Shown: positions 3,001 through 54,900, numbered from the stretch's first letter. The stretch is 64,000 bases of DNA from Desulfurivibrionaceae bacterium (GCA_046484585.1 JAWOIQ010000210.1:12238-76237), one strand, 5' to 3'. Notes: a model not told the origin generated them from the sequence alone. Translations and numbers: made by a program.

Positions 3001-6000
3001 AATGCGGTTGATCCTGTCTTCCTGATTGGCGGGAATGTAGCCCCGATTTCCGGTTTGATAGATCCTGAAGTTATGGGCGGAGGGTTGACTAAATATGTTA
3101 TTGAAGCGCCGGCCAATGTCGCTGGTCCGGCCGATCTTCTGGTAAACAACCAAAGCGGTGGTGCCGACAGTCTGTTTGGCGCTGTACAGTATGTCGAACC
3201 ACTGTCGCTTGTTTCGATAAATCCGGCGCAAGGGTCTGTCAATGGTGGAACAGAGACGATTATCAAGGGCCTGGGATTCCGCCCCGGCTTAGCCCGAGTA
3301 AAGGTCTATTTTGGTGGTATTCCGGTTTCTGAGCAAGATATCAAAGTTTTGGACGGTGAAACGCTTGAGGTCAAAACGCCGGCAGGAAGGCTTGGTCTTG
3401 CTGATGTCACGGTTACTCTTGATTCAGGCCAATCCGAAACTATGCCTGCAGCTTTTGAATATCAGCAACCGGCCCAAGCGAACATTGAAAGTCGCATGAT
3501 TTATGACGCGACTCTCGATCCTACCGGGGTTTTCCTTATTACGGCCGAAAGCGGTGGTGTCGGTATCTATAACGTTGATGCCTCAACTTTTACGGCAAAT
3601 GCCGAGCACCCTCTGAATCCCGATGATCTCCGGGAAAAAATAGATTTGAATGGCGACGGTAAGGATGATCGGTTGTTGTCTTTTGTCCCACTGGGTGAAA
3701 CAGCTTTGGGTGTTGACACCTATTTTGAACGTGGTGTGGACAGAGTGCTGGCAACGGGTGCCGGTGGCAATCTATATGTAATAGGTTTTGACTCGTTTGA
3801 TGTCGCCAATTCAACGATTATTTCAACTCTGCCGCTATTTTCCAGCCTGGCTCGCGGTATTGAGGCGGAGAACAACAGGGCGGTTATCGCCATGGGTGAT
3901 CGTGGTATCGGTCTGGTTGATATTTATCTGGCAACCAAGACGTACCTGACCAGTCATTTTACATTGCCGGACCAGCATTCGGCCCTTGATGTGACAAGAG
4001 TGGCGCGGCCTGCCGGACTTCCCGATTTGTACGCGGTAGTGTCCGGCAGTTTCTCGGTGAAGGAAAATAAACTTATTAACGAGAATGATCCCGGGAGCGG
4101 CGCCTTTTATTTGATCGAACAAAATGTGGGCCAAGGTTTCCAGGTTGTGGGCACGGTGAAAATCCCTGCCAGCCGCGTGGTTGTTGTTGGGGACAAGGCT
4201 TATCTCGCCGCCGGCAACAACGGTTTGGTTATTGTAGATATATCTGATCCCGGGAATCCGGTGATAATTTCCAGGGTTAACGATATAGGTTTTGTTTTTG
4301 ACGTGGATGTCAACGGTAATACCGCCTATCTTGCCCTTGGCGATAAAGGTCTGGCCACCGTTGATGTAACGGATCCTTATCTGCCTCAAGTCACCCAGGG
4401 CATGGAAGTTATGGCTGGGAATTCCATTCATACTGTTCTAGCCGATGATTATTCGGCTATTGCCGGTGGAGATTCCGCAATTCAGTTAACTGCTGACGTC
4501 GTGCTCAAGATTTTCAGCATCGACCCCCGGAATTACATTCTTGATTATGACGCTGAAGGCAAGTTGGTTGTCAGGCTTCGTTTCAATAAAGACATTGATC
4601 TCTGGCCTGAAAACCTGAATCATTTCCGGATACTCGGTCCTGATGATGATCCCGTGGCAACCGAAGTCGATATCATCAATAATGATGCCATCATAAACAT
4701 TCTGCCGGGTCATGGTCTGGCTGTCGGAGATAACTTGACCGTCCTTGCCAGGGCCGGAGTGAAAGTGATCAAGCCGCTGACGAATGACGTACATATTGAA
4801 CTGTATTCATTGCGGCAAGACCAGAAATTCCAGCTTATCTTCCGTGGCGGTAGACCGGATATTCTGAAACTTGATTCCGTTGTGCCGCGAAGAATTTCTG
4901 CCGGCAAAAGTAAAGAAATAAAGGTTTCCGGTCTGGGTATTCCTTTGGATCCAGCTCGGGTGAAGGTCTATGTGAGTAATATCGCAGCGGATATTCTCAA
5001 GATTGAGTCCAACGATGCTGAAGAACGGGCTGCCATTATTACGGCCAACGTCCCGCCTATAGAGGTGGCCGGACAGTTTGACGTTACCGTCCTGCTGGAG
5101 AAAGACGGAATATGGGAAAGCCTCACCCTTTATGGCGGCTTGATGGTTGATGAGCCGATCGAATTTGAGACTCTGACTCCAAGCTGGGGGCCATGGAATG
5201 GCGGCACCACCGTTTCGATATACGGTAAAGGATTCGAGCCCGGCAACACTGTCATGGAGGGGCTCAAGATACTGATTGGCGATGTGCCGGTCAGGGCCAT
5301 TCGGGTTTTCTCCTCGGAACACCTGCAAATTGTTTCGCCGGGCGGCAGAGTGGGTCGCAATGATGTACATGGCGAAGATCGCTACGGAAATCGAACTGCC
5401 CTGCTCGGTGATGACGGTTTCGGTTATGGTCTCAAGCGACTTGCCTCGCAAAGTGTTGGTTTCGCTCCCACGGATATTTTTGTCGATCAGGAAACAGGCG
5501 TAGCAATAACCAACGGCGGTTATTTTTTTGAAAACCGTTCTGAACAGTATTTCGAGGGTGTGCCGCTGCCCGATTCCATTCGTGCGGCAACATTCGATAT
5601 CCAGAATCCGACCCAGCCGTTACTTGTCGGGGGAGTTTCAACATTGCCGAGCGGTGATAAGGGCAGGGAGCAGATCAGTCGTTTTCTGGAATACCAGAGC
5701 CTGGCCGCGAAAATGCTTTTAGGTGAATTGGGGCTGTCTAATGAGGCCATGTCGCCTGAAGAGCAGGCCCGGCTGGGTCAACTCGATAACCATGTTCTTG
5801 CCACAGGCTATGATTCTATCAGGGTGAGACCGGTCAAAGAGTTTGAAGATGGCATACCGCGTAAACGACTTTATGTTGCAAGCGGCAGCGGCGGTGTTTC
5901 CCGTTTGAATCTGGATGAGCAGAACGGCCTTCAGGTTATCTCCCAGATTCTTGATGAGTCCGAAGGAATGCATGTCGGAGATATTAATAAGCAGGGCTAT

Positions 6001-15000: not shown

Positions 15001-18000
15001 AATGAGAAGCGGAGTGATGTAAGTATCGCAAAGACCGCTTATTTGAGTGAGGAGGCTGTTAATCTCTACACCTCTCCTAGTGCTGATGATGTTACAGGCG
15101 ATATGGCGGTTGTTCCCGCCCTTTCGGGGAGCGGTAATGACCTGTTTTGGGTAATAAACAGGCGAAATGGCGGCTATATATTACGGAATCAGGCCAAGGT
15201 TCTGCACACCGAGTTTAAAGGGTCCCTTGAGCAGCTTAAATTTACCGGCAGCGGCCTGGCGGCTCAGGAGAGGGACGGAAGTAATCGTACTCTAATGTAC
15301 TGGCCAATAATTGGCGGTGAACTGGGTGCTGCTGTAAAACAAAGAATATTGGGCGATTTTGTCGGAGTCAGCGGCAATATTCTGTTTACCCGCCATGGCA
15401 ATCTTTTTGATGGTTATCAGGTGATCGATCGGGGTTTTGTCCCCTTTGTCGGCCGCTTGATCAATGAGCCTGTTCGTGATGCCATGGTGGATGCCGATCG
15501 GCTCTTTATCCTAACCGAGTCCGGTTTGGCTGTGTATAGAGTCTCCGGCGACTCGTTTTATGAGTTGCAGGAAGTATTCTATACGGGCGTGGCGGATGCG
15601 GAGGAGTTCTTGGTTAAGGGTAACCGCCTGATCACCTGGCGGGAGAACTTTGTTACCAGCTACCAACTCATGGAAGATGGCTCTTTAATTGAGTTGAGCA
15701 CCATTGATTGTGGCGGACCGGTCTTACACGCCTTTGCGGATGGCGAATTGATTTGGCTGCTGACCGATGGACCTTTTGCCGATCAAACCTGGCGGGCCTA
15801 TCGTGATGATGAGCTTGTGGGGCTATTGGCTGACGGCTCCGATCGGTTGGCATTTGGCGGCAACAAGCTTTACAGCAGAATGACGGGAGATAAATCCGAC
15901 GCGATAGTAGTTCGTTCCACAATCGCAGTTTCGCCGGCAGCCATATTTGCTCCGACCTTAATTGAGACACCGCAGGGGATGTTGGTTGGTAATGTCATCG
16001 AGGCGGATACCATAGGTGGCGAGAGCATTGCGTTCTTTAACGATGCAGGTCAATTTTTACCAGCGCAACCTGTCTGGCGAGAAGGGAAGCAACAGTGGTT
16101 TATATCGCGGATTGGGCTGGATTCGTCAAACATAAAAATTGTCAGAACAGACCGGGGAGGAAGGACCGATCAAAGTGTCCTGAATATAAACACTGCCTCT
16201 AGTACTGTTATTGATCGATTATTGCCTGAAGACAACACCTCATTAGTCAATGGTGGATGGGTTCCGGCGACTTTGATCTATTCCGCCGACACCAGGATCG
16301 ATGAGGCCAAGGTGCTATTTAGCGGGCAGGAACGCCCGGTCACTAACAGTTCCGAGCTCCGATCCTTCCAGTGGCTTGATATCCCAGAGTCTGGGGCCGA
16401 TGCAGTCTTAAATGTGGTTGTTGACGCTTTTGAGATGGCTGCTCACAATCTGACTTTTGTAGACAACGATCCGCAACTCGAGGGAATAAATCTTTTTCAA
16501 CCGGCACCTAACGAGTCTTTTACCGAAGGGGCCATGCTCTCGGTCGAATTCAGGGCTTCACAAGAAAGCGGTCTTGCTTTCAAATATACTGAAATCTGCC
16601 TGCTTGACAGTAATAGAAAGTTGCTCGACCGACGTTTACTGGCAGAGTCGAGGGGAGTAGTGGACTTGCGTTTGCCGGACATTGAACAGCGTGAGAATAT
16701 ATTTGTCCGGGTTCGGGCCTATTATGGTCCCAATTTTTATTATAGCGAGGCTGAAACGGGAATTCGGCTCTTCCCGGAGTTGAGGATTCCGCCCGTGGAA
16801 ATACAAGGTGTCGGCAACCGGATCATGATCGGATCGTTGCTTGAGGCCTGGATCGGCTCGCAAATTCCTGAAGGCATGGGAGCGAGGCTCGCTCTTTCGG
16901 ATGGGCAGGGTAATCTTCTTGTGGCCGGAGAACAGCGGGTTAGCCATCTTGTCTCCCTTGATACCCAAGAGCTTGTCTTGACCGCCACGGTCTCCGACGG
17001 TTTGGGCAATAGCCAGACAATCGCCAAACAGATCCATGTAATCAACCCCTTTGAATTATCGGAATTGGCCGCCACCCGGAAATTCCAGAAAGGTTTGCCA
17101 TCCGTAGGCAACGCGTGGTTTGCCTCCGGCCGCTCACTGTATGACATCGATAACAATCTGCAAGTAAGCTTCGATACATATATCAATGCCTTGGATTTCC
17201 TGGGCGACAGGCTGATTCTTTCATTGAAGGATATCGGGCTGGTAATTGTTGATCCCACAAATGATTTCCTGGAATTAAGCCGGATGCCCATGAGCGGCGA
17301 GGTAACGGATCTTGCCGTGTCCGCGGACCGGCTTTTGGCGGTGATCGCGGGGGAATTACATGGGTTTGCAATTTCAGGCAATGCTCTCGAAAAAGTAAAG
17401 ACCGTGCCGGTAAGCGGCATAGTACGGGAGGTCCGTTCCAGAAAAGGCCGATTTGTAGTGATCACCGGCGAAGAAATGCTGCTGGTAAATGAAGAATTCA
17501 ATGTGAATTCCCGTCAGACCGGCAACTTCACCGCCGTGGCTCAATCATCCGGAAACCTCTTTGTCTCAGAAACCACCGGCAAGCTTCGGGTCATCAGCGA
17601 CGATTTTGCCTGGGTCAAACAGTTTGAGTTGGATGTTCAGGCAGACAGGTTGTTGATGTTGCAAGGATATCTGCTGGCTTTATCCGCGGACACGGGAAAA
17701 ATAAAGGTTCTTGATATATTTGATCCGCGCAACCCGGAAGTGATAGGCTCTTTTTCCGTTTCGCTTGGCAGTGATGCGGGAGAAGCCATCATCAGTGAAG
17801 GCAAACTGTGGATCGGCGGCGAAAACAGCCGTGTTTTCGCCCTTACCCGTAAAGAGAGAACTCCTGCAATACTTTACGAAAGCGTAAGGCCGCGCGGTAA
17901 TGTCCGCGATGTAAGTATTGGTGAAGGAAGTTACCTGGCGGCCGCGGATTCATACGGCGCCATTAATCTGGAACGGATCACCGATGGATGGCAAGAGGCA

Positions 18001-35907: not shown

Positions 35908-35910
35908 AAA

Positions 35911-35986
35911 ACAGTTCAGGGCTCTGAGTTTAGGGTTTAAAACCAGGAACTAGAAACCTGCACTCAGAACTTTGAACTCTGAACTC
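35911..35986. repeat. Heptamer-family imperfect inverted repeat (hairpin) directly after the giant ORF stop
   Basis: GTTCAGGGCTCTGAGTTTAGGGTTT (35914-35938) versus AAACCTGCACTCAGAACTTTGAAC (35954-35977), which is partly complementary. It uses AGTTCNG/CNGAACT-type units. Confidence 0.6.
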
Positions 35987-36022
35987 AATACTAAATAACT
36001 AAACAAGAGGGGGAAAATATTC

Positions 36023-36838
36023 ATGAGTTTGCGCTTTTTGGGTGTTACGTTTTTAACTGTTATTTTGCTTGGCGGCTGCGGAGGTAATGGGGAAAACATT
36101 GCCAAATTGAACGGCAAGAACATCAGCAAGGCCGAGTTTGAGTCATTTCTGAAGATTAAAAGGGTGCCCGCCGACAACGACAAGAAGCGCGAGCGTCTTC
36201 TCGACCAGTATCTGGAGCGGGAGGCCTTGGCCACGGTCATTGAACAACAGGAATTACTCGATAAACAGATGATTCAGGTCGAGTTGAATGAATTCCGCAA
36301 AGAGATGCTGATCAGCCGTTATTTCGAGAAGTTCCTCAAAGATAAGGTGAGCGACCAGGCTGTGCGCAATTATTACAACACCAATGGCGCCGAATATGAG
36401 CAGAAAAAGGCCCATGCCGCCCATATCCTGATTCGGATTAATAAGCGGATGAGCGAGCCGGAAAGGCAGGCCAAATTGACCACCGCCCAGGATGCTTATT
36501 CACAGGTCAAATCCGGTAAGGAATTTGCCGAGATCGCCAAGAGATATTCCGAAGACAGAATTTCCGCCGAGAAGGGCGGCGATTTGGGCTGGATCAAGGA
36601 AGGCAGTATCGACAAACGTTTCTCGAAGACCATATTTGAAGGCCTCAAGGAAGGCGAGGTCTCGGAACCGTTTGAAACACCTTTTGGGTTTCACATCGTT
36701 AAGATCCTGGAAGCGCCGCAGGTGGTTAAACAACCGTTTGAAGCCGTTTCGGGAGACATCCGTTATCAACTTCGCAGTCAGGCGAAGAAGGCGGAACTGG
36801 AACGGTTAAAAGCGGAGATTGAGATAGAGAAGCTTTGA
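36023..36838 (+). CDS. Lipoprotein parvulin-type peptidyl-prolyl cis-trans isomerase (PpiC/PrsA/SurA-like chaperone)
   Basis: ATG follows a GAGGGGG Shine-Dalgarno-like sequence. The signal peptide has lipobox LLGGC. The C-terminal rotamase motif reads AHILI...GGDLGWIKEGSIDKRFSKTIFEGLKEGEVSEPFETPFGFHIVKILE. Confidence 0.85.
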   Translation: MSLRFLGVTFLTVILLGGCGGNGENIAKLNGKNISKAEFESFLKIKRVPADNDKKRERLLDQYLEREALATVIEQQELLDKQMIQVELNEFRKEMLISRYFEKFLKDKVSDQAVRNYYNTNGAEYEQKKAHAAHILIRINKRMSEPERQAKLTTAQDAYSQVKSGKEFAEIAKRYSEDRISAEKGGDLGWIKEGSIDKRFSKTIFEGLKEGEVSEPFETPFGFHIVKILEAPQVVKQPFEAVSGDIRYQLRSQAKKAELERLKAEIEIEKL

Positions 36839-37016
36839 GTTTCTAGTTTCGAGTTTCTGGTTTCTAGTTCAAAGTTCTGAGCTTTAGTAGTTAACCAGAA
36901 ACCAGAAACCAGAAACCAGAAACCAGAAACCAGAAACCAGAAGCTGTAGTTTCGAACCAGAAACCGGAAACCAGAAACCAGAAACCGGAAACTAGAAACC
37001 GGAAACTAGAAACCGG
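36839..37016. repeat. Heptamer inverted tandem-repeat element (T-rich arm, loop, A-rich arm with 7 perfect AACCAGA copies, then AACCGGA/AACTAGA variants)
   Basis: It starts on the base after the TGA stop. GTTTCTAGTTTCGAGTTTCTGGTTTCTAGTTC... occupies 36839-36887. (AACCAGA)x7 occupies 36893-36941. Degenerate units continue to 37016. Confidence 0.9.
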
Positions 37017-37048
37017 TCCTTAACCCCAAACCCCGAAACAGGTTAATA

Positions 37049-37894
37049 ATGAATCGCTTTCTAATACTTGCCTTAATGGCCCTCTTTATATTGCCCGGCT
37101 GCGGTGACAAGAACGAAGAGGTCAAACTGCCGGGTGATTCCGAGGTGTTGGCCACGGTAAACGGCTCCGTCATCAGCCGGTTTGATCTCGACTTGAGCAT
37201 CGAAACCATGATGGGCCGGGAAGAAGCGGAAAAGATCGACGCGGCCGGACGCGGAAAGGTCCTTGAAAGTCTGGTCATGAGCCGCGCTATTTCCCAGGCC
37301 CGGGCGCAAGTTGCCCCAGCCGATGATCTGGCCGTGATTAACCGGAAAGCCGCGGCCTACCGTGAAAAGCTGTTGGTCAGGCAGTACCTTGCCAAGAATG
37401 CCCCTCCTCAGCCTGTTACCCGGGAGATGATCAGGGATTATTACCTGAACCACCTTGATGAATTCGGCGCGAAAAAGGAACGGGTTTACGAGATGATCTC
37501 CAGCAAGCGGCCGTTGAAGGCGGAAGAACGTAACGCCTTGCTGGAAAAATTGCGGAAACCCGAAGAAAAGAGGGATTGGCGCAAATGGGTGGAGGAACTT
37601 CAAAAGCAGGGATATCCGTTAGCCTATAGGCGGGGCGCTGTCGTCGAGAAGATCCTCCATCCGCAACTGCGGAAGATGCTGGAGTCCCTGAAAAAAAATG
37701 AGCCATCCCCCCTGACCTTTATCAAGGACATTTGCTATCTGGTGAAAATTGTTGAGGAGAAGGACCAACCCGCCCGTCCCTTAAAAGAGGTGAGCGGCCA
37801 AATCCGGAAAATGCTTGTCCCGGTGCAACTTAAAAAGTCGATAGAACAGGTTTCTCGGGAAGTGCTGGAGAAGGCTGAGGTTGAATATAGGTGA
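37049..37894 (+). CDS. Lipoprotein, SurA-N-terminal-like / degenerate PPIase-family chaperone paralogue
   Basis: The signal peptide has lipobox ILPGC. VLATVNGSVISRFDLD... is typical of the SurA/PpiD N-terminal chaperone domain. The C-terminal region only weakly resembles a rotamase, and no clear catalytic motif is present. Confidence 0.6.
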   Translation: MNRFLILALMALFILPGCGDKNEEVKLPGDSEVLATVNGSVISRFDLDLSIETMMGREEAEKIDAAGRGKVLESLVMSRAISQARAQVAPADDLAVINRKAAAYREKLLVRQYLAKNAPPQPVTREMIRDYYLNHLDEFGAKKERVYEMISSKRPLKAEERNALLEKLRKPEEKRDWRKWVEELQKQGYPLAYRRGAVVEKILHPQLRKMLESLKKNEPSPLTFIKDICYLVKIVEEKDQPARPLKEVSGQIRKMLVPVQLKKSIEQVSREVLEKAEVEYR

Positions 37895-38085
37895 GTTTCT
37901 GGTTTCTAGTTTCTAGTTCGGAGTTCGGAGTTCAGAGTACCTAGTTGTTAGTTGAGAACCAGAAACCCGAATATAAGTGAGTTTCTAGTTTCTGGTTTCT
38001 AGTTCAAAGTTCTGAGCTTTAGTAGTTAACCAGAAACTAGAAACCGGAAACCAGAAACCGGTTCTTCAAACCCGAAACTCGGAAG
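37895..38085. repeat. Two consecutive heptamer hairpin elements
   Basis: The element starts on the base after the TGA stop. Unit 1 (37895-37970) reads GTTTCTGGTTTCTAGTTTCTAGTTCGGAGTTCGGAGTTCAGAG...GAGAACCAGAAACCCGAA. Unit 2 (37981-38060) contains a 51-nt stretch identical to 36852-36902. Confidence 0.9.
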
Positions 38086-38105
38086 TTACCCTAACCCGAT
38101 GAACT

Positions 38106-41100
38106 GTGATGCGATTAAAAACCAAAGCGAATAAAACATGCCTTCCTGTTGGCCCCTTTTGTGCAGTGGCCGCTCTTCTTTATTTTACCCTGGCAGTCAC
38201 GGCGAATATCGCATCGGCGGAGATCATTGCCCAGCCGAAGGATCAGCGTGTATTCGAAGGAGAGACGGCTGGATTTTCGGTGTCTGCGCATGGTGGCGAT
38301 CCGCGGTTCCAATGGCAAAGGGACGACAGCGACATTCCGGGAGCGACTTCGGACTCGTATTCCCTGGAAAATGTCCAATCAAGCGACGACGGCAGTTGGT
38401 TTCGGGCTAATGTAGCAACCTCCACGGACAGCGAAATGAGCCAGGAGGCGCAGCTGGTTGTCTTCGAAAAGGGTGATCTTGACCGAAACGGGGAAATTAA
38501 CAAAGATGATGTGGCTATCCTCCGGCACTATTTTGATAAGAATACCGGAAATAGTGATGAATGCGACCTGAATGAAGACGGCCGGATCGATGTGCATGAT
38601 CTGAAGCTACTCAAACAGTATTGTGCCAACGATAATTGCGGAAGAAGTGAGCCAAATCCGCCGATTATAATTCATCATCCTGAAAGCAAAGCCGTGACCG
38701 AGGGGCAATCCGCTAAATTCGAAGTGCTGATTTCCCCTCCGGAACATGGTGACGACAACAATCCCGAGAAACAGAAGATCTCCTACCAGTGGCAAAAAAA
38801 CGGTGACGACATTGTCGGCGCCACCAGTGGTGTGTTGCGGCTGGAAAACCTTTCGCTCAGCGATAACGGGAGCAGACTTGTCTGTCTCATCTCCTATGAT
38901 TCCGGCGCTTTTTTCAGCAGGCCGGCCCGGATTTTTGTGCGGAAAGAGAAGGATCTTGCCGGGCTCAAGTCTTCCGATCGGCAACTCCTGATCACCAGCC
39001 AACCGTTCAGCCGAAGCGTCTCGGAGGGCGGTGATGTCCGGTTTACGGTCAAGGCTCTCGGCAAAAATCCGCGCTACCAGTGGCAGAGAAACGGCGAAGA
39101 CATCGAGGGCGCCACCGGTGGCGAATATCGCCGCACGGATATAGCCCTTTCTGAAAGCGGCAGCCGGTTTCGGTGCGTCATTACCGATAAGGACGGTAAC
39201 GAAGTGATCGGCGAGGAGGCCGTGCTTACCGTCTTTCCCCGGGCGGATTACGACTGGGACGGCAATATCGATAAGTATGATGTAAATGTCTTGCGCTATT
39301 ACCTGGGTAAAAATGGTCTGTCATTCAAGGCCTACGATTTTGACGGGGACGGGTTTATCTCCCTTAATGATTTGCGGATCCTGATGGACCAGTGCCATTG
39401 CCCCCGCTGCCAGCAACCGGTGCTGCCGACCATCACCGGGCAACCGGCGGATTTAACCGTAGTCGAAGGCCAACCGGCGACCTTTGCCGTGAGCGCAGCT
39501 TCCATCGGCAGAAAGTTTACCTATCAATGGCAGGAAAACGGGATCGATATTGAAGGCGCCACTCGGGCCACATACACCTTTGTCCCTGATCTGTACGACC
39601 ACTGGAAAACATATCGCTGCGTGGTTTCCAATGTTATGGGCAGCGTGGTGAGCGACAGCGCCACCCTTGAAGTCGAAATGGATGTTCCGCCAAACACGGA
39701 AGAGGTGTCAAGCAGCGGGGTTGCCTGGCAAGGTCAATTCGCCTTGCTGAACTGGGACGAACCGGCGGGGTATCGATATCAAATTCATCGCGGCTCCAAA
39801 CCCGAGGCGCTTTCCCTGTTGACCGAAGTTGAAGCCTCGCCCTATCTTGACGAAACGGCTGAATATTATTTCGGCTGGTATTACCGCTTCGCAACCATCA
39901 AGGACTATTTTCACCCGGTGAGCAATAAGGTCTATCACAGCGTCGGGCCATTGTCCGATCCCATCTATCTTACCGCGCAACCGAGCCCCAAGGTGACAAT
40001 TTTAAATACCATGGTGGAAGCCGATGGCTCTTACTCCAGGTATTTTGATCCGGATAATCTTAATGTAGCCGGGGTCTATGAAGCCATGGAGGGACCGGTG
40101 AGTATCAATGGTGCCCTCGGATCCAAACTTGTCAGCACCACCGGTGAAAACGGCAATTTCTCCATTCTTCTCAATGAACCCGGCGCCTGGCGTATCGAGC
40201 TGGCCGAGACCGATGGCTGGCGCAGTGTTACGGCGATGCTCAACCTTAAAATCGATCTCCGAAAACCGACCCTCGTTGTCAGCGGCGCAACCGAACAGAC
40301 GACCAGCGATTCCTTTTTCGTGATTACCGGTCAGGCCGGAGATAATGAATCAGGATTGAAGTCCGTGACGGTGACCTCCGGCCGTTTCCCTGATCTGACT
40401 TTTGGAGCGCTTATTGAAAACAACGGGACATTCTCGAGCAATGTGCCGGTGGCGATAGGGGATAATCAGATAACCGTTATGGCCAGGGACCGATACGGCA
40501 ATGAGTCGCAAACGGCTATCTCCGTTACGTGTACTTTGCCGGCTCTGCCGCTGATAAATATTTTAAATCCTGAAAATGGCGCCACTGTAGAAACCGGCCA
40601 GGCCGAGCTTGCCGGGACGGTGCGGTCAAGTCTGCCGCCAGGTCAGATCAGACTCTTTTTTGAAAACCAGGTTTATTTCCCGTCCGGTAGTGACGGCGAA
40701 TATACTTTCACCATTCCCGGTGTTCAGTTGCAGAGTGGCGCAAATACCCTGGAGATCCGGGCCGAAAGCCCCTATGGCACCGTTTCGGCCCAGACCACGG
40801 TTTATTACCGGACCGGGCAAGGAGATGATCCTGATGGGCCGCCGGCCGGCGAGCTTCAAAGAAATCTGCCGCAAATTGAAATTCTTACTCCGCTGCCCGA
40901 CAGGTATCTTACAGAAAGCTCATTTCCGGTAAGCGGTTATGCGCGCGGCGACAATGGGATTTCTTCGGTGCTGGTTAATGGTGTAAATGCCTCCGTCACC
41001 GGAGCCGGCGAGGAGGTATCCTTTGAGGCGCGGCTTGACTTCAACGGCAATGCCGAACTCGTTGTTGAGGTTGAAGCGCTGGATCGCAAGGGTTTGAGTA

Positions 41101-42896
41101 CTTCGCTGCAATATAAGGTTCTGTTTGATGAAGGTCCTCCCGTGCTGTCCTTGAATAATGGCGGTCTGCAGCCGGCCCCGGCAATAAACTCCGTGCTCGA
41201 AACGCCGTATCCATTATCCGGTATTGTAAAAGATGCCAATCTGGCGGGATTGTCGATTAACGACCAGCCTTTGCATGTTCTGCCCGTCGATCAGGAAAAT
41301 TATACGTTTGATGCCGATATCGGACTGGTCCGCGGCCAGGAGTCGCTGTTAGTTCTCTCGGCCTGGGACATGGCCGGCAACCGTACCGATTCCGAAATCA
41401 TTCTCCGCCACGATGCCGGCATCGATATTGAAATCATCTCTCCCCGGCCCGACAGCGAACTTCCGGTCAGAGGGGATATTGCCCAGATCGAAGTGACTTT
41501 GCGCATGGCGGGCATGGCGGATGACGACCTCGTTTCCGTGAGTATTGACGGAGAACCGGCTTCAAGTCTATCCAGGGAGGCGACAACGGTACATGGCACC
41601 GCCCCCGTGCCGACTGCGGAGAGTGAGCATGAACTGGCGGTCGAGGTGCATAGTGTCGACGGGGCTCTTTTGGCACGTGCCGGCAGCTATTTTACCGTGG
41701 TCGATCTGGACAGCATTCCGCTGGCCCTGGATCGTCAAGAACCGGAAAATGGCGCCTGGGGTGTTGAGACCAACGGCTATATCGCCCTGTACTTCAACAA
41801 ACCAATCGACCCGGCCTTGTTGGCGGTCGAAGTACGGGAAACCGTTCATGGCCTGGATTATACCTATCCCGACAGCGGCGCCGATATTTCGCAGCAGAGC
41901 AAAATAGAGCTTGTCGAAGTCCATCGGGATCGTGAGCCGGTGCCCGGCGCGCTTGCCCATTTCCCCGAAAAAACAATGACGGCCTTTTACCCTGAACGCA
42001 CTCTTGCATTCGGTGCAACCGAGTACGTTTCGGTAATTTATGACGGCGATGAACTGGCAACCTCAACCTTTGAGACAAGAGCCTTGCCGACCTTTATCCA
42101 GGGCTTTGTCGTGGATCAGTTCAGACAGCCCCTGGAAGGCGTTATCGTCTCCATCCCGAAACTCCGGCGCACAGCGGTTACCGATAACGAGGGCAGCTTC
42201 ACCTTCGGCATCGGTGAAAATACAGATCGGACTATTCCGGCCGGACGTTATTCGGCAATCGCAAACCCCGGTCTGCTGAACCGTTCCTTGGGGTCGGCTG
42301 AATTCTGGGTATCGGTGAGGGAGGGCAGGCTCAATTCGGTAGGGGTGACGTCCTTGCCGATCCTGAACCCAACCGAGCCTTTCCGGCGGATAGCCTCCGG
42401 TGATTATCCGGTGCTCCTCGCCGCCGGAGAGTTCATCCTTGATCTCAGCGAGGCGGCGCTTGAATTTGCGGACGGCAGCGGGGCGGGGAATGTTCACACC
42501 CAATTCATGGATGTCGCGCAACTGCCTTATAAATTCCGGCCTTCGGCCATGCCCCAGTGGGCTTTTGTGACTAATCCCGGCGGCATAAACGTGAGCGGCC
42601 CGGTCGGCCTCACTTTTAAAATGCCCGCCTTGCTGGGCAGCTATGACTATATAGAAAGGATCGGCGAGCGGGTGGTGTTGATCGGGCTGGATCCCAACTC
42701 CCTGCAACTGGTTCCGGTCGGGGTCGGAAAAGTCGATCCGGCAGCCAACCGGGTCTTGAGCGAAGGCAAGGTCGGCCTGAAGCGTTTGGATTGTCTTGCC
42801 TACGGTTTGGTCGATCCCGATAAGCAACCCTATTTGGAAAGCTATGCCAAAGGCGAGATAAGCCTCTCGGAATTGACGATGAGATTAGAAGAATAA
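38106..42896 (+). CDS. Secreted 1,596-aa protein: four Ig-like (I-set-like) domains interleaved with two dockerin-type Ca-binding modules, further Ig-like/beta-sandwich domains and a CarboxypepD_reg-like domain
   Basis: The signal peptide reads ...LYFTLAVTANIASA/E. The Ig-like signature (F.WQ.NG.DI.GAT...Y.L.....D.G..F.C) repeats four times. FIQGFVVDQFRQPLEGVIVSI...TDNEGSFTF is CarbopepD_reg-like. The start may be GTG 38106 or ATG 38109. Confidence 0.8.
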   Translation: MMRLKTKANKTCLPVGPFCAVAALLYFTLAVTANIASAEIIAQPKDQRVFEGETAGFSVSAHGGDPRFQWQRDDSDIPGATSDSYSLENVQSSDDGSWFRANVATSTDSEMSQEAQLVVFEKGDLDRNGEINKDDVAILRHYFDKNTGNSDECDLNEDGRIDVHDLKLLKQYCANDNCGRSEPNPPIIIHHPESKAVTEGQSAKFEVLISPPEHGDDNNPEKQKISYQWQKNGDDIVGATSGVLRLENLSLSDNGSRLVCLISYDSGAFFSRPARIFVRKEKDLAGLKSSDRQLLITSQPFSRSVSEGGDVRFTVKALGKNPRYQWQRNGEDIEGATGGEYRRTDIALSESGSRFRCVITDKDGNEVIGEEAVLTVFPRADYDWDGNIDKYDVNVLRYYLGKNGLSFKAYDFDGDGFISLNDLRILMDQCHCPRCQQPVLPTITGQPADLTVVEGQPATFAVSAASIGRKFTYQWQENGIDIEGATRATYTFVPDLYDHWKTYRCVVSNVMGSVVSDSATLEVEMDVPPNTEEVSSSGVAWQGQFALLNWDEPAGYRYQIHRGSKPEALSLLTEVEASPYLDETAEYYFGWYYRFATIKDYFHPVSNKVYHSVGPLSDPIYLTAQPSPKVTILNTMVEADGSYSRYFDPDNLNVAGVYEAMEGPVSINGALGSKLVSTTGENGNFSILLNEPGAWRIELAETDGWRSVTAMLNLKIDLRKPTLVVSGATEQTTSDSFFVITGQAGDNESGLKSVTVTSGRFPDLTFGALIENNGTFSSNVPVAIGDNQITVMARDRYGNESQTAISVTCTLPALPLINILNPENGATVETGQAELAGTVRSSLPPGQIRLFFENQVYFPSGSDGEYTFTIPGVQLQSGANTLEIRAESPYGTVSAQTTVYYRTGQGDDPDGPPAGELQRNLPQIEILTPLPDRYLTESSFPVSGYARGDNGISSVLVNGVNASVTGAGEEVSFEARLDFNGNAELVVEVEALDRKGLSTSLQYKVLFDEGPPVLSLNNGGLQPAPAINSVLETPYPLSGIVKDANLAGLSINDQPLHVLPVDQENYTFDADIGLVRGQESLLVLSAWDMAGNRTDSEIILRHDAGIDIEIISPRPDSELPVRGDIAQIEVTLRMAGMADDDLVSVSIDGEPASSLSREATTVHGTAPVPTAESEHELAVEVHSVDGALLARAGSYFTVVDLDSIPLALDRQEPENGAWGVETNGYIALYFNKPIDPALLAVEVRETVHGLDYTYPDSGADISQQSKIELVEVHRDREPVPGALAHFPEKTMTAFYPERTLAFGATEYVSVIYDGDELATSTFETRALPTFIQGFVVDQFRQPLEGVIVSIPKLRRTAVTDNEGSFTFGIGENTDRTIPAGRYSAIANPGLLNRSLGSAEFWVSVREGRLNSVGVTSLPILNPTEPFRRIASGDYPVLLAAGEFILDLSEAALEFADGSGAGNVHTQFMDVAQLPYKFRPSAMPQWAFVTNPGGINVSGPVGLTFKMPALLGSYDYIERIGERVVLIGLDPNSLQLVPVGVGKVDPAANRVLSEGKVGLKRLDCLAYGLVDPDKQPYLESYAKGEISLSELTMRLEE
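38472..38625 (+). other. Dockerin type-I-like module 1 (duplicated EF-hand-like Ca loops)
   Basis: GDLDRNGEINKDDVAILRHYF...CDLNEDGRIDVHDLKLLKQYC has two DxDxNGxIdxxD loops, each followed by a helix. Confidence 0.65.
39243..39395 (+). other. Dockerin type-I-like module 2
   Basis: ADYDWDGNIDKYDVNVLRYYLGKNG...YDFDGDGFISLNDLRILMDQC. Confidence 0.65.
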
Positions 42897-42900
42897 CAAA

Positions 42901-43030
42901 AGTTCCTAGTTCCTAGTTCCTGGTTTCTAGTTCAGGGTTAAAAGCCCGAAACTCGAAACCAGAAACTCGAAACCAGAAATTCGAAACCAGAAATTCGAAA
43001 CCAGAAACCAGAAACCAGAAACCAGAAACT
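42901..43030. repeat. Heptamer / 14-mer inverted tandem-repeat element
   Basis: (AGTTCCT)x3 occupies 42901-42921, followed by GGTTTCTAGTTCAGGGTT. The A-rich arm has four 14-mers CGAAACCAGAAA(C/T)(T/C) at 42954-43009. These overlap (AACCAGA)x4 at 42999-43026. Confidence 0.9.
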
Positions 43031-43039
43031 AATTTGACA

Positions 43040-43441
43040 ATGGCGACTATTACGCGATTTGAAGATATTGATGCCTGGCAAAAAGCTCGTGAGCTTACTG
43101 CTGCTATTTATAGAGAGAGTCGTACTGGGGCTTTTGCGAAAGATTTTGGTTTGCGCGATCAAATTTGTCGGGCTGTCGTTTCGGTCATGTCGAATATTGC
43201 GGAAGGATTTGATCGGGACGGGAATAGAGAGTTCATGAATTTTCTTTCTATCGCTAAAGGTTCTGCCGCGGAGGTGACCTCTCAGCTCTATATTGCAAAA
43301 GATATCGGCTACATAGATGATGAGAGGTTTGACGAATTATACAAGCTTGCCAAGGAAGTAGGGTCATTGATCGGAGGTTTCATGAAATATCTGGGAAATT
43401 CAAAAATGGCCGGAAACAAATTCAAACACTCAAAAAAATGA
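43040..43441 (+). CDS. Four-helix-bundle protein of the 23S rRNA-intervening-sequence (S23p) / DGR Avd-like family
   Basis: MATITRFEDIDAWQKARELTAAIY...DQICRAVVSVMSNIAEGFDR...EFMNFLSIAKGSAAEVTSQLYIAKDIGYI is the family signature (W.ka..l......p..e...l..Q..ra..Si..NIAEG..r....ef..fl.iA.gS..E....l). I prefer ATG 43040 over the track's TTG 43034. Confidence 0.85.
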   Translation: MATITRFEDIDAWQKARELTAAIYRESRTGAFAKDFGLRDQICRAVVSVMSNIAEGFDRDGNREFMNFLSIAKGSAAEVTSQLYIAKDIGYIDDERFDELYKLAKEVGSLIGGFMKYLGNSKMAGNKFKHSKK

Positions 43442-43446
43442 AGAAA

Positions 43447-43570
43447 GTTTTGAGTTCCGAGTTCAGGAACCTAAAACCAGGAACTAGGAACTAGAAACCA
43501 GAAGTCCGAAACCAGAAGTCCGAAACCAGAAGTCCGAAACCCGGAACCAGAAACCAGGAACTAGAAACAC
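43447..43570. repeat. Heptamer / 14-mer inverted tandem-repeat element
   Basis: GTTTTGAGTTCCGAGTTCAGGAACC is followed by AAACCAGGAACTAGGAACTAG. Three perfect 14-mers AAACCAGAAGTCCG occupy 43495-43536. AACCAGAAACCAGGAACTAGAAAC follows them. Confidence 0.9.
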
Positions 43571-43582
43571 GAAATATACATT

Positions 43583-53325: not shown

Positions 53326-53375
53326 GACGAACTCGGCGATCAGGTCCGGGCCGGGCATCGATATCAACGGCAATG
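53326..53375 (+). pseudogene. Isolated scrap of rhs core sequence
   Basis: GACGAACTCGGCGATCAGGTCCGGGCCGGG(C)ATCGATATCAACGGCAATG is near-identical to 48617-48665 of the main rhs gene, with one extra C. The flanking sequence is unrelated. Confidence 0.75.
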
Positions 53376-53462
53376 TTGATGGCGGGGGCTTGACATTTTG
53401 ATATTCTCACGGCCATGAAGTCAAATTGTCAAGCCTGGCCCCACTTTCACAACCTTCGGCAG

Positions 53463-54900
53463 CGGCCAAGTCGTCACCTATGGTTACGAGTCGAAAAGGA
53501 ATCTTAAGACCAGGGTAAGCAACCAGTTCGGCGCCGAGTTAATCTCGCAGTACGATTACAGCTACGATGGTGTTGGCAGGAGGAGCAATGTCATGAATTC
53601 CGGCGCCGCTTTTGCCGACCCAGGCTTTAATCTTTACGGCTATAACGAACGTAACGAGCTGACCGATTCCGAGCGTTACCTGGGGATGAGCTTCGACGAC
53701 AACAGCCAACCGGTCTCTTCCGAAGATCGTGCCTACGGTTACGATAATATCGGCAACCGGACCGAGGCCGCCGGTTGGGATAGTGAGCAGAGTATTGCTA
53801 TGCAGCTCACCTATACCGCCAACCAGGTCAACCAGTACGATTTGATCTCTGCGAATATCGGGGCTGATGAGACACCGGTTTATGACGATGACGGCAATAT
53901 GACCGGCTATGAAGGTATGAACTACACCTATAACGCAGAGAACCGGCTGGTCAGCGTCGAGCCGCAGTCACCTGTGGTTGGAGATATCAGAGTCGACTTT
54001 ACTTACGACTTCATGGGCCGCAGGGTGGCGAAAAATATCGCGAGGTACGACGCAACCCTGAAGGCTCAACTGGAAACCCGGAACCTGTTCCTTTATGACG
54101 GCTGGAACCTGATTCAAGAGATAACTCAGAACTCAGAACTCGGAGCTCAGAACTCGTCGTTCTACGTCTGGGGTCTTGATCTCAGCCAGTCCATGCAGGG
54201 CGCCGGAGGTGTCGGCGGCTTGCTGGCAAGAGTTTCCGGCGGTGCAAGCCATACCTATACTTATGATGCCAACGGCAATGTCGGTCAGTTGATTGACGGC
54301 GGGGCCAATATCGCCGCCCATTACGAGTATGATCCTTATGGAAATACGATTAAAGCTGTTGGTTCATTGGCTGAGGGAAATCCGTATCGGTTCAGCACCA
54401 AATATTTCGATGTCGAGACCGAGTTGTATTACTATGGTATCCGTTATTACTCGCCGGAGTTGGGACGGTGGCTGACTATGGATCCGATTGGTGAACGAGG
54501 CGGGCTCAACCTCTATGGGTTTATTGGGAATAATGTTTCCAACAGTGTCGACTTATTTGGATTAGTTTTATATGCTTTTGACGGTACAGGGAATAACGAC
54601 CGCAATGTTGCTAAAGGGTATTACACCCATGTTCATACTCTTTGGAAAGATTATGAGGGTAGAGAAAAATTCTATACAAAAGGAGTTGGTAGTGATTGGT
54701 ATTCTTTTATTCATGGCGGACTTCATGGCCTAGGAGGGCAGTCTAGACTTGAGAAGGCATATAAAAAGTTTTTGCAAGACTACAAAGAGCAGGTAGCCAA
54801 TGGAGCACCAATTGATGATATTGACATAATAGGGTTTAGTCGTGGTGCAGCACTTGCGAGGGCATTCGTGAATCTTCTGAGTTCGGGGGACATCATATAG
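53463..54900 (+). pseudogene. Orphan rhs C-terminal core fragment plus truncated tip CT3 (N-terminal half of a DUF2235 domain); frameshifted at its 5' end
   Basis: GQVVTYGYESKRNLKTRVS (frame 3) parallels the main rhs GQITTYGYEPNRNLKTGVT. A 1-nt shift near 53517-53523 (AGCAAACC) is followed by NQFGAELISQYDYSYDGVGRR... in the frame of ORF 53593-54900. The core end reads YYGIRYYSPELGRWLTMDPIGERGGLNLYGF...DLFGL. LYAFDGTGNND...IIGFSRGAALARAF comes next, and a stop follows shortly after the GxSxG motif. Confidence 0.8.

Follow-up and report, generated by a model that had tools for sequence, protein, structure and literature searches.

In the 64,000-nucleotide stretch of a Desulfurivibrionaceae bacterium analysed here (GCA_046484585.1, JAWOIQ010000210.1:12238-76237; hereafter the window), each of the five consecutive gaps between genes at positions 35,908 to 43,582 is filled with palindromes, the arms of which are tandem arrays of 7-nt units. 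Judged by their sequence, these gap palindromes are the same kind of element as the arrays that enclose genes of the family PF05635, the '23S rRNA intervening-sequence protein' (S23p; also TIGR02436), in many bacteria; one copy (42.9-43.57 kb) appears to carry a PF05635 gene in its loop, and the others would be derivatives without an open reading frame (ORF). The complete reading favoured here, with a confidence slightly better than even, is that they are selfish palindromes of mRNA, resembling the intervening sequences (IVSs) of rRNA and belonging to a family of S23p cassettes, with stems that are cut by RNase III or protect 3' ends; within this reading, the assignment to the PF05635-associated class is far better secured than the nuclease step. 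Heptamer repeats, IVSs, and palindromes targeted by RNase III are known kinds; the main interest lies in a general connection of S23p genes with phased heptamer palindromes in mRNAs.

Heptamer arrays in the five gaps

An earlier note on this DNA, made from the sequence alone, had described phased 7-nt arrays in all five gaps, and this description is confirmed: by Tandem Repeats Finder (TRF), arrays with periods of 7, 14 or 28 nt were found in every gap, such that each contains a heptanucleotide tandem repeat in intergenic DNA. The sequence AACCAGAAACCAGA (allowing up to 2 mismatches) matches 36 times in the window, every time within 35941-43565, whereas dinucleotide shuffles yield 0.49 +/- 0.83 matches and reached 36 in 0 of 100 cases. 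The array copy numbers derive from short-read assemblies and may be inexact.

The anatomy had also been described correctly, namely as a G/T arm after the stop codon, a loop, and a longer A-rich arm, able to pair in many registers. The 5' arm consists of G/T-rich units of the form GTYYNNR (GTTTCTG/A, GTTCCTA, GTTCGGA); the 3' arm, which extends towards the next start, consists of complementary A/C-rich units (AACCAGA, AACCGGA, AACTAGA) and of 14-mers of these. Cores recur with a 7-nt phase in all five gaps, RGTY in the 5' arm and RACY in the 3' arm. The 5' arm follows the stop codon directly in gaps 2 and 3 (TGA, then GTTTCT), whereas 6-8 nt lie between them in gaps 1, 4, and 5; the stop codon of the giant ORF precedes gap 1. 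Arm lengths range from 20 to 122 nt. The A arm is the longer one in all gaps of the window and ends 5-35 nt before the next start codon, and four of the five genes situated 3' of the gaps possess no clear Shine-Dalgarno site. As a G/T arm followed by an A/C arm reads identically on both strands, the arm order is uninformative on selection at the level of mRNA, and the sole strand asymmetry in the window is the longer A arm on the sense strand.

Gap 3 contains two hairpins, the second of which is nearly identical to that of gap 2. The 12-nt spacer between them, GAATATAAGTGA (37970-37981), copies the gene end GAATATAGGTGA (37883-37894), i.e., the last 12 nt of the second peptidyl-prolyl isomerase (PPIase) gene including its stop codon. 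On sequence grounds, the duplicate together with the near-copied hairpin points to duplication or exchange between arrays, and the arrangement looks like a tandem duplication plus an exchange between arrays, or like a target duplication.

Neither the giant ORF nor the intergenic regions from 51.9 to 64 kb contain such an array (TRF and AACCAGAAACCAGA scan). The restriction to this locus, which the earlier note stated for the window, holds for its intergenic regions; it does not extend beyond, as the same design is found in two orthologous loci (L121 and L122; retrieved loci are numbered with L) and where a genome scan, run without a control pattern, found (AACCAGA)3 in more than 120 stretches from many phyla. 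At 54123-54155, a related A-type array (AACTCAG, 4.7 copies) forms part of the coding region of an RHS fragment gene, where its translation reads TQNSELGAQNS. A degenerate counterpart is found at the homologous position of the large RHS paralogue (about 50585-50620, RNSEPATQNS), and a recent insertion at 54123 was discarded, since the paralogue shares the residues.

Predicted folding and transcription signals

A stop-adjacent RNA hairpin is predicted in five of the five gaps, in each case better than in shuffles (z = -2.9, -6.2, -4.8, -5.4, and -2.6 for gaps 1 to 5), which bears out the hairpins envisaged by the earlier note. Predicted stems comprise approximately 18-35 bp. In gap 2 the hairpin extends over 36836-36939 and the remaining A arm is predicted to be single-stranded, as are the surplus A arms in general (80-120 nt, with more C than G). 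Concerning known RNA families, no matching one was found in Rfam; only eukaryotic microRNA-precursor models appeared below threshold (best 41.8 bits, gathering threshold 97), which were dismissed as a family assignment because they represent generic long hairpins.

Promoter-like and terminator-like sites in the scanned region are not in excess over shuffles. The gaps contain no promoter-like sites and no terminator-like sites on the + strand, the sole terminator-like match in any gap being situated on the minus strand (43545-43533); readings as promoters or intrinsic terminators were therefore rejected, and the partial termination considered by the earlier note finds no support here. Transcription attenuation, in which the hairpins or Rho-loading A arms would partly terminate transcription and thereby cause decreasing expression along the cluster, is improbable. 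The surplus A arms, long, richer in C than in G and predicted to be unstructured, would suit it, as a C-rich, G-poor, unstructured composition is typical of Rho utilisation sites. However, the sequence following the hairpins is A-rich and not U-rich, the order of the arms avoids a U tail on both strands, and the PF05635 gene and the genes downstream would need read-through. The GGA motifs, which had been proposed as a protein-binding feature, are absent from most units of the family, and CsrA/GGA binding sites were for this reason rejected as a general explanation.

The PF05635 gene and its predicted enclosing stem

The product of 43040-43441, the PF05635 identity of which had been overlooked in the earlier account, matches PF05635 in Pfam (E = 1.7e-36), TIGR02436 in NCBIfam, and the structure PDB 2GSC (E = 3.8e-15), the entry of which has 5 chains. 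Its gene, which lacks a Shine-Dalgarno site, has the arrays of gap 4 on its 5' side and those of gap 5 on its 3' side. In both the minimum free energy (MFE) and the centroid structure, the G/T arm of gap 4 (42909-42947) is predicted to pair with the distal A/C arm of gap 5 (about 43509-43568), and the long-range fold of 42890-43590 attains z = -3.75. A stem of inverted arms around a PF05635 gene is, according to this predicted fold, the architecture of an intervening sequence.

Two features of 23S rRNA IVSs are accordingly present in prediction or sequence: terminal inverted repeats that are predicted to form a long enclosing stem and, as in a subset of IVSs, an S23p ORF in the loop. The insertion in helix 25 or 45 of 23S rRNA is not, as the gaps separate protein-coding genes; no rRNA match was found by Rfam in 35500-44000. 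The elements of gaps 1-3 carry no ORF. A role of the small PF05635 protein in a defence system finds no support in PADLOC, and a phage vector is unsupported, as no relative of the window's PF05635 subfamily was found in 2.9 million viral contigs.

Orthologous loci

With the first PPIase gene (36023-36838) as an anchor, orthologous loci were found in which the PPIase is 88% (L122), 78% (L121), or 70% (L124 and L125) identical to that of the window. The first PPIase itself is 100% identical to a protein assigned to a Desulfurivibrionaceae metagenome-assembled genome. The window, L121, and L122 share one gene order, and the giant gene 5' of the PPIase gene is also present in L121, L124, and L125. 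In L121 and L122, every gap consists of a G/T arm at the stop codon, a turn, and an A/C arm, with differing units and copy numbers; L124 and L125 possess gaps of 85, 16, and 0 nt with ordinary Shine-Dalgarno sites (AGGAG-type in L124) and no arrays. Since units vary among the 88% and 78% relatives and the 70% relatives are array-free, the arrays are, as far as these sequences tell, a lineage-specific acquisition with fast sequence turnover and a conserved layout, and the operon does not appear to need them. This speaks against the possibility, raised in the earlier note, that they set the stoichiometry of giant gene to chaperones: the syntenic 70% relative manages with compact array-free gaps, units and copy numbers turn over in the closer relatives, and the element occurs in unrelated operons and phyla.

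Compared to the array-free L124, the element of gap 2 follows the stop codon directly and precedes the ancestral ribosome-binding region ACAGG(A)G; no target duplication is evident at this insertion point. At the position of gap 3, L122 has a single hairpin (two in the window). Its PF05635 gene is preceded by a G/T arm of 9 units and followed by an A/C arm, and a predicted stem of approximately 70 bp encloses the gene (z = -9.8). In L121, the PF05635 gene (17031-17480) is broken by an in-frame stop, leaving an 80-aa remnant, while the 5' G/T arm is intact.

The arrays might also act on the level of DNA, as substrates for recombination or phase variation that switch surface-protein or toxin genes. 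The duplication or exchange between arrays at gap 3 and the content of the locus, which encodes a giant surface protein and RHS toxins, would be in accordance with such switching; the shared gene order of the window, L121, and L122 is not, an intergenic 7-nt unit cannot switch a reading frame, and the same elements occur elsewhere in housekeeping and restriction-modification contexts. Of the explanations discussed here, it is judged the least probable.

Survey of PF05635 loci

A metagenome scan with an alignment of four proteins yielded 80 loci, picked by PF05635 homology alone, the proteins of which form 62 clusters at 80% identity; inverted arms are found in 40 of these clusters. Arrays with a lag of 7 nt are present upstream of the PF05635 gene in 45 and downstream in 52 of the 80 loci, whereas the other lags between 4 and 11 occur in 0-4 loci and a lag-7 array is found in 28 of 732 control windows. 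Concerning the complementarity between upstream and downstream arms, an ungapped score was used (RNAduplex on 160-nt flanks gave long, sloppy duplexes for any pair). Its median is 14 within a locus and 7 across loci, these cross-locus controls sharing unit families, and 37 and 27 of 77 loci exceed the cross-locus 95th and 99th percentile, respectively. Where an ORF of at least 80 aa precedes, the upstream arm begins at -3 to +7 nt relative to the stop codon of that ORF in 32 of 43 cases, and the arms of these cassettes are approximately 30 nt long (30 and 32 nt; 4-4.5 units).

The upstream units follow the consensus G-T-Y-Y-M-R-R in 51 of 55 loci, although each locus has its own variant (e.g., GTCCAAG, GTTTCGA, GTTGCGA, GTCCTGA, GTTTGTG). 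On the basis of this survey, a class of PF05635-associated inverted heptamer arrays is defined here by a GTYYMRR 5' arm at a stop codon and a complementary 3' arm, each of at least about three units. The gaps of the window show this organization, and their units fit GTYYMRR apart from position 6 of the main unit GTTTCTG. Within the same loci, arrays occupy 34 of 58 gaps adjacent to the PF05635 gene and 18 of 69 other gaps, and 29% of the distant arrays differ by at most one mismatch from the cassette unit of their own locus, compared to 9% across loci.

Among the loci L129, L132, L137, L147, L149, and L150, several PF05635 cassettes are situated directly 5' of large putative DNA methyltransferase genes (N-terminus CLGMTFxNDEARR..., then DPPYYTACPNP); L129 and L132 additionally share a conserved upstream gene. 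This suggests, from gene content, that restriction-modification-type operons are a recurrent home of PF05635 cassettes. Another recurring context, that of other cassettes, is a position 5' of a conserved gene beginning with MFADLHLH. L190 (1-1105) contains a PF05635 gene flanked by short arms, with tRNA-Ile(GAT) on one side and tRNA-Ala(TGC) on the other, a tRNA pair that is the usual content of the 16S-23S spacer, another heavily processed transcript.

Complete palindromes also occur within a coding sequence, which speaks for insertion. The methyltransferase ORF of L137 contains three of them (3336-3425, 3897-4065, and 5283-5350), all in-frame and translated, built of GTTCAGG/AACCCAG, the units of the PF05635 cassette of L137 itself, and not present in the L129, L149, and L150 orthologues; approximately 75 nt of extra coding sequence lie in the loop of the second palindrome.

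The association between gene and arrays might have a direct molecular cause, with the arrays as putative binding sites of S23p: a pentameric ring, related to Avd of diversity-generating retroelements (DGRs), would contact one heptamer per subunit and control folding, processing, or propagation. Physical linkage of gene and arrays across phyla, a conserved heptad core with three variable positions, and arms of typically 4-5 units are consistent with such binding, as are the 5 chains with which the homologues PDB 2GSC and 2RLD were deposited and the description of Xanthomonas S23p as a homopentamer (PMC4990558). However, most arrays have no PF05635 gene within 4 kb, the gene decays in L121 and in Coxiella whereas arrays persist, and the A arms of the window reach 17 units, such that binding of this kind is thought unlikely. 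A more far-reaching version would unite S23p genes and GTYYMRR palindromes in one cross-phylum element, the pentameric ring reading the heptads with one unit per subunit and driving propagation or processing, with the ORF-less hairpins as non-autonomous copies and rRNA IVSs as a special case; it is put forward as a speculation that is more probably wrong than right, on a par with binding as such.

AACCAGA arrays in other genomes

Cultured carriers include Arenibacter palladensis DSM 17539 (L071), Hymenobacter guriensis (L065), Bizionia algoritergicola (L032), and Rhodohalobacter sulfatireducens (L109). In L050 (Pyrinomonadaceae) and L005 (Planctomycetota), the PF05635 gene is flanked by a G/T arm following the upstream stop codon and by an A/C arm following its own, and in three phyla, PF05635 homologues of 50-75% identity are placed between arms of this kind. 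Successive gaps filled with arrays are found in an unrelated phylum as well: L086 (1148-7522; a Planctomycetota metagenome-assembled genome, DASPJR010000067.1) contains six AACCAGA-family arrays in 8 kb, mostly abutting ORF ends, five of which are hairpins with the G/T arm first. A reversed order (AACCAGA arm, loop, TCTGGTT arm) is found in Thermoanaerobaculia/Acidobacteriota (L001, L002, L003, L004, L024, L030, L039); in L001, the arms flank an ordinary terminator-like hairpin between convergent genes.

These loci bear on the possibility that the A/C-rich, G-poor array takes the place of the Shine-Dalgarno site as an unstructured landing pad for ribosomes or as a leader bound by S1, the hairpin being incidental. 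In the window, the always longer A arm with its end close to the start codon and the four of five downstream genes without a clear Shine-Dalgarno site would fit a leader, as would the AGGAG-type site of the array-free L124. Furthermore, in other phyla an ATG follows many single A-type arrays at a distance of a few nt, and the same observation was made for TAACTGA in Beggiatoaceae (MacGregor 2015). No general sense-strand bias of single arrays was found, however, with about 16 A-type versus about 12 T-type arrays on the sense strand between co-directional ORFs of the 120 loci (crude ORF calls). Outside the lineage of the window, a general surplus of the A arm is absent from other hairpins with G/T-then-A/C order and from the PF05635 cassettes (30 and 32 nt), and the Thermoanaerobaculia show the opposite order. 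The leader is therefore considered doubtful as an explanation.

Alternatively, the arrays might be plain simple-sequence repeats (SSRs), which arise by slippage in dispensable intergenic DNA, without function and unrelated to the PF05635 gene. Heptanucleotides are the most abundant long SSRs in many prokaryotes, as far as the account of Mrazek et al. 2007 given in PMC4679880 goes. Period 7 dominates the retrieved loci, too (245 arrays; no other period exceeds 33), close relatives differ in units and copy numbers, and the 70% relative is array-free. In viral contigs, AACCAGA was found 25 times and two control heptamers of the same composition 11 times each; with controls only about 2-fold rarer, AACCAGA is not established as a universally selected special unit. 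Slippage alone, however, yields neither matched inverted arms nor an RGTY core common to differing units across phyla, and it leaves the complementarity across a 400-nt gene, the enrichment next to PF05635 genes, and the palindromes within a conserved ORF unexplained. As a sufficient account it appears less probable than a leader function, though more so than attenuation.

Comparison with known systems

The elements are most similar to 23S rRNA IVSs with an S23p ORF, as in Coxiella, Leptospira, Brucella, and Xanthomonas. That of Coxiella contains an S23p ORF, a terminal-repeat stem of 28 bp in which RNase III cuts have been mapped, and, just 5' of the ORF, a tandem heptamer (GACAGAT) in strain-variable number; the ORF is undergoing reductive evolution (PMC4990558). 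Common to both are a long stem of terminal inverted repeats (here predicted) with the S23p/PF05635 gene in its loop, variable-copy tandem heptamers beside this gene, the position inside a host transcript without an own promoter, and an ORF prone to decay (in L121 here). Despite this general similarity, there are clear differences: the present elements are intercistronic in mRNA, in one case in the tRNA-Ile/tRNA-Ala spacer of L190, and not in helix 25 or 45; their arms consist wholly of heptamer arrays with a GTYYMRR core; and ORF-less copies cluster in neighbouring gaps and also occur inside ORFs.

The earlier note had likened the palindromes to heptameric short tandemly repeated repetitive (STRR) sequences and to repetitive extragenic palindromic (REP) elements, a resemblance that is agreed with here. 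With STRRs, for which units such as CCCCAGT are typical, and other long SSRs, as well as with the TAACTGA repeats of Beggiatoaceae, they share tandem 7-nt units in intergenic DNA, a patchy distribution across phyla, variable copy numbers, and often a position directly 5' of start codons without a Shine-Dalgarno site. The TAACTGA repeats, which lie upstream of start codons, comprise 169 direct sets and 1 indirect set (PMC4679880), whereas the present arrays form matched, inverted arms that adjoin stop codons, with genes of one specific family between them. In addition, STRR and TAACTGA repeats have their own units and host range (cyanobacteria, Beggiatoaceae, a few Bacteroidetes), while here GTTTCTG/AACCAGA is found in Desulfurivibrionaceae.

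Like the REP elements of enterobacteria and their composites, bacterial interspersed mosaic elements (BIMEs), the gap elements are intergenic palindromes just after stop codons, which would be co-transcribed. REP elements reportedly stabilise upstream mRNA and affect translation termination near the stop codon, as is said of the work of Newbury in 1987 and of Liang, Rudd and Deutscher in 2015. A REP, however, consists of one imperfect palindrome, approximately 35 nt in length, the conserved head of which is recognised by RAYT transposases, and has neither heptamer arrays nor a link to S23p; since the arms here are variable heptamer arrays and not a single palindrome of about 20-40 nt, assignment to REP/BIME was rejected on anatomy.

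The Correia elements of Neisseria (Correia repeat enclosed elements, CREEs), which are co-transcribed hairpins bound or cleaved by RNase III, alter the expression of neighbouring genes (PMC2649163). As in CREEs and other miniature inverted-repeat transposable elements (MITEs), the present palindromes are small, intergenic, and non-autonomous, with (here predicted) hairpins in mRNA; yet CREEs have a fixed length, defined terminal repeats, a TA target duplication, and an integration host factor (IHF) site, whereas the present elements vary in length and unit between gaps and orthologues. Membership among CREE-type MITEs was rejected on anatomy as well, fixed length and target duplication being absent. 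Finally, Rickettsia palindromic elements (RPEs), which according to Ogata et al. in 2000 reportedly insert in-frame in protein genes and are translated, resemble the in-frame translated repeats in the L137 methyltransferase and the RHS arrays of the window; they are, however, unrelated in sequence, are not heptamer arrays, and are confined to Rickettsia. A search of the open-access literature found neither a mention of AACCAGA/TCTGGTT arrays nor any account of PF05635 genes that lie outside rRNA with inverted heptamer arrays on both sides.

Proposed mechanism and its weight

According to the favoured reading as IVS-like mRNA palindromes, the elements are most likely selfish and would spread by insertion or recombination, whereupon slippage would lengthen the arrays until the stop codon is reached at one end and the region of translation start at the other. 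Arrays probably abut stop codons and approach start codons because insertion or expansion continues until constrained sequence is reached. The co-directional genes of the cluster are probably transcribed as one mRNA, in which each element would form a stem at the 3' end of a cistron. By analogy with rRNA IVSs and Correia elements, this stem is likely cut by RNase III; alternatively, once the single-stranded A-rich tail has been cleaved, it might stop exonucleases acting from the 3' end. In both cases, the mRNA of the operon would end up as several segments, each with a stability of its own, through which the expression of the genes may be affected. RNase III processing or 3'-end protection, both suggested by the earlier note, seem a sensible role by analogy, and the former has a precedent in the IVS of Coxiella, where the same protein family and heptamers accompany a stem cut by RNase III (PMC4990558).

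Several observations weigh against this reading. Among the 120 AACCAGA-seeded loci, a PF05635 gene is found in only two (L050 and L005), and 26% of the non-adjacent gaps in PF05635 loci also bear arrays; therefore, the link between gene and arrays may reflect a preference of the gene for array-rich genomes and not a single element. The 80 loci of the survey are the best matches to an alignment of array-flanked proteins, representing one PF05635 subfamily, and ORF calling was crude. None of 20 PF05635 loci checked lies in an rRNA gene, which makes the relation to rRNA IVSs one of analogy and not of membership, and the Coxiella heptamer GACAGAT does not fit the GTYYMRR core. Several stems are imperfect, with a mismatch every 7 nt in gap 4 and a length of only about 18 bp in gap 5. 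Furthermore, neither a target-site duplication nor a transposase was identified, the domain scan covering the main ORFs of the window.

To our knowledge, since about 1990 neither a function nor an origin has become known for rRNA IVSs and their S23p ORF, and the PF05635 four-helix-bundle proteins are annotated by the thousands with no known role. If PF05635 genes normally reside within operon palindromes, rRNA IVSs would represent one case of a general element, which would be open to study in mRNAs, and phased heptamer arrays would become a ligand hypothesis for S23p and, by homology, for Avd-like proteins. Part of the excess of heptanucleotide repeats in bacterial intergenic DNA would also be explained. 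For annotation, the arrays would mark likely RNA processing sites as well as in-frame insertions in proteins.

Features of the locus

Table 1. Genes and palindromes of the heptamer-array locus, with positions in the window
Feature	Position	Strand	Remarks
Giant ORF, 3' part	1-35907	+	>11968 aa, 5' end beyond the start of the window; ORF list
Gap 1 palindrome	35913-35990	+	G/T arm ~35913-35940; A/C arm ~35941-35990; hairpin 35914-35977
PpiC-type peptidyl-prolyl isomerase lipoprotein	36023-36838	+	Pfam PF13616/PF00639
Gap 2 palindrome	36839-37014	+	G/T arm 36839-36869 (GTTTCTA/G); degenerate turn 36870-36892; TRF, fold
Gap 2 A/C arm	36893-37014	+	~17 units AACCAGA/AACCGGA/AACTAGA
Second PPIase-like lipoprotein	37049-37894	+	Weak Rotamase_2 match (Pfam)
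Gap 3, two palindromes	37895-38062	+	First 37895-37969; second 37982-38062; sequence, fold with nested hairpins
Ig-like/dockerin/EF-hand surface protein, ~1595 aa	38109-42896	+	Pfam; syntenic in L121 and L122
Gap 4	42901-43029	+	G/T arm 42901-42939 (GTTCCTA/GTTTCTA); TRF
Gap 4 A/C arm	42948-43029	+	14-mer GAAACTCGAAACCA, then AACCAGA
PF05635/TIGR02436 four-helix-bundle protein (S23p), 133 aa	43040-43441	+	Pfam, NCBIfam, PDB
Gap 5	43446-43568	+	Short G/T arm 43446-43466; TRF
Gap 5 A/C arm	43468-43568	+	14-mer GAAACCAGAAGTCC x3.4, AACCAGG, AACTAGA
Predicted long-range stem enclosing the PF05635 gene	42909-43568	+	MFE and centroid fold
RHS-repeat protein, C-terminal Tle1-like phospholipase domain	43583-51856	+	Pfam; gene 3' of the last array

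At the 3' side of the RHS/Tle1 toxin gene, a stretch of low GC content (51000-54900; 0.40-0.41 compared to approximately 0.50) harbours, besides small ORFs, a fragment similar to Tle1 (52423-52785) and another C-terminal RHS fragment (53593-54900), the latter with 60% identity to residues 2158-2583 of the large RHS protein. Such a layout is the usual one for orphan toxin cassettes.

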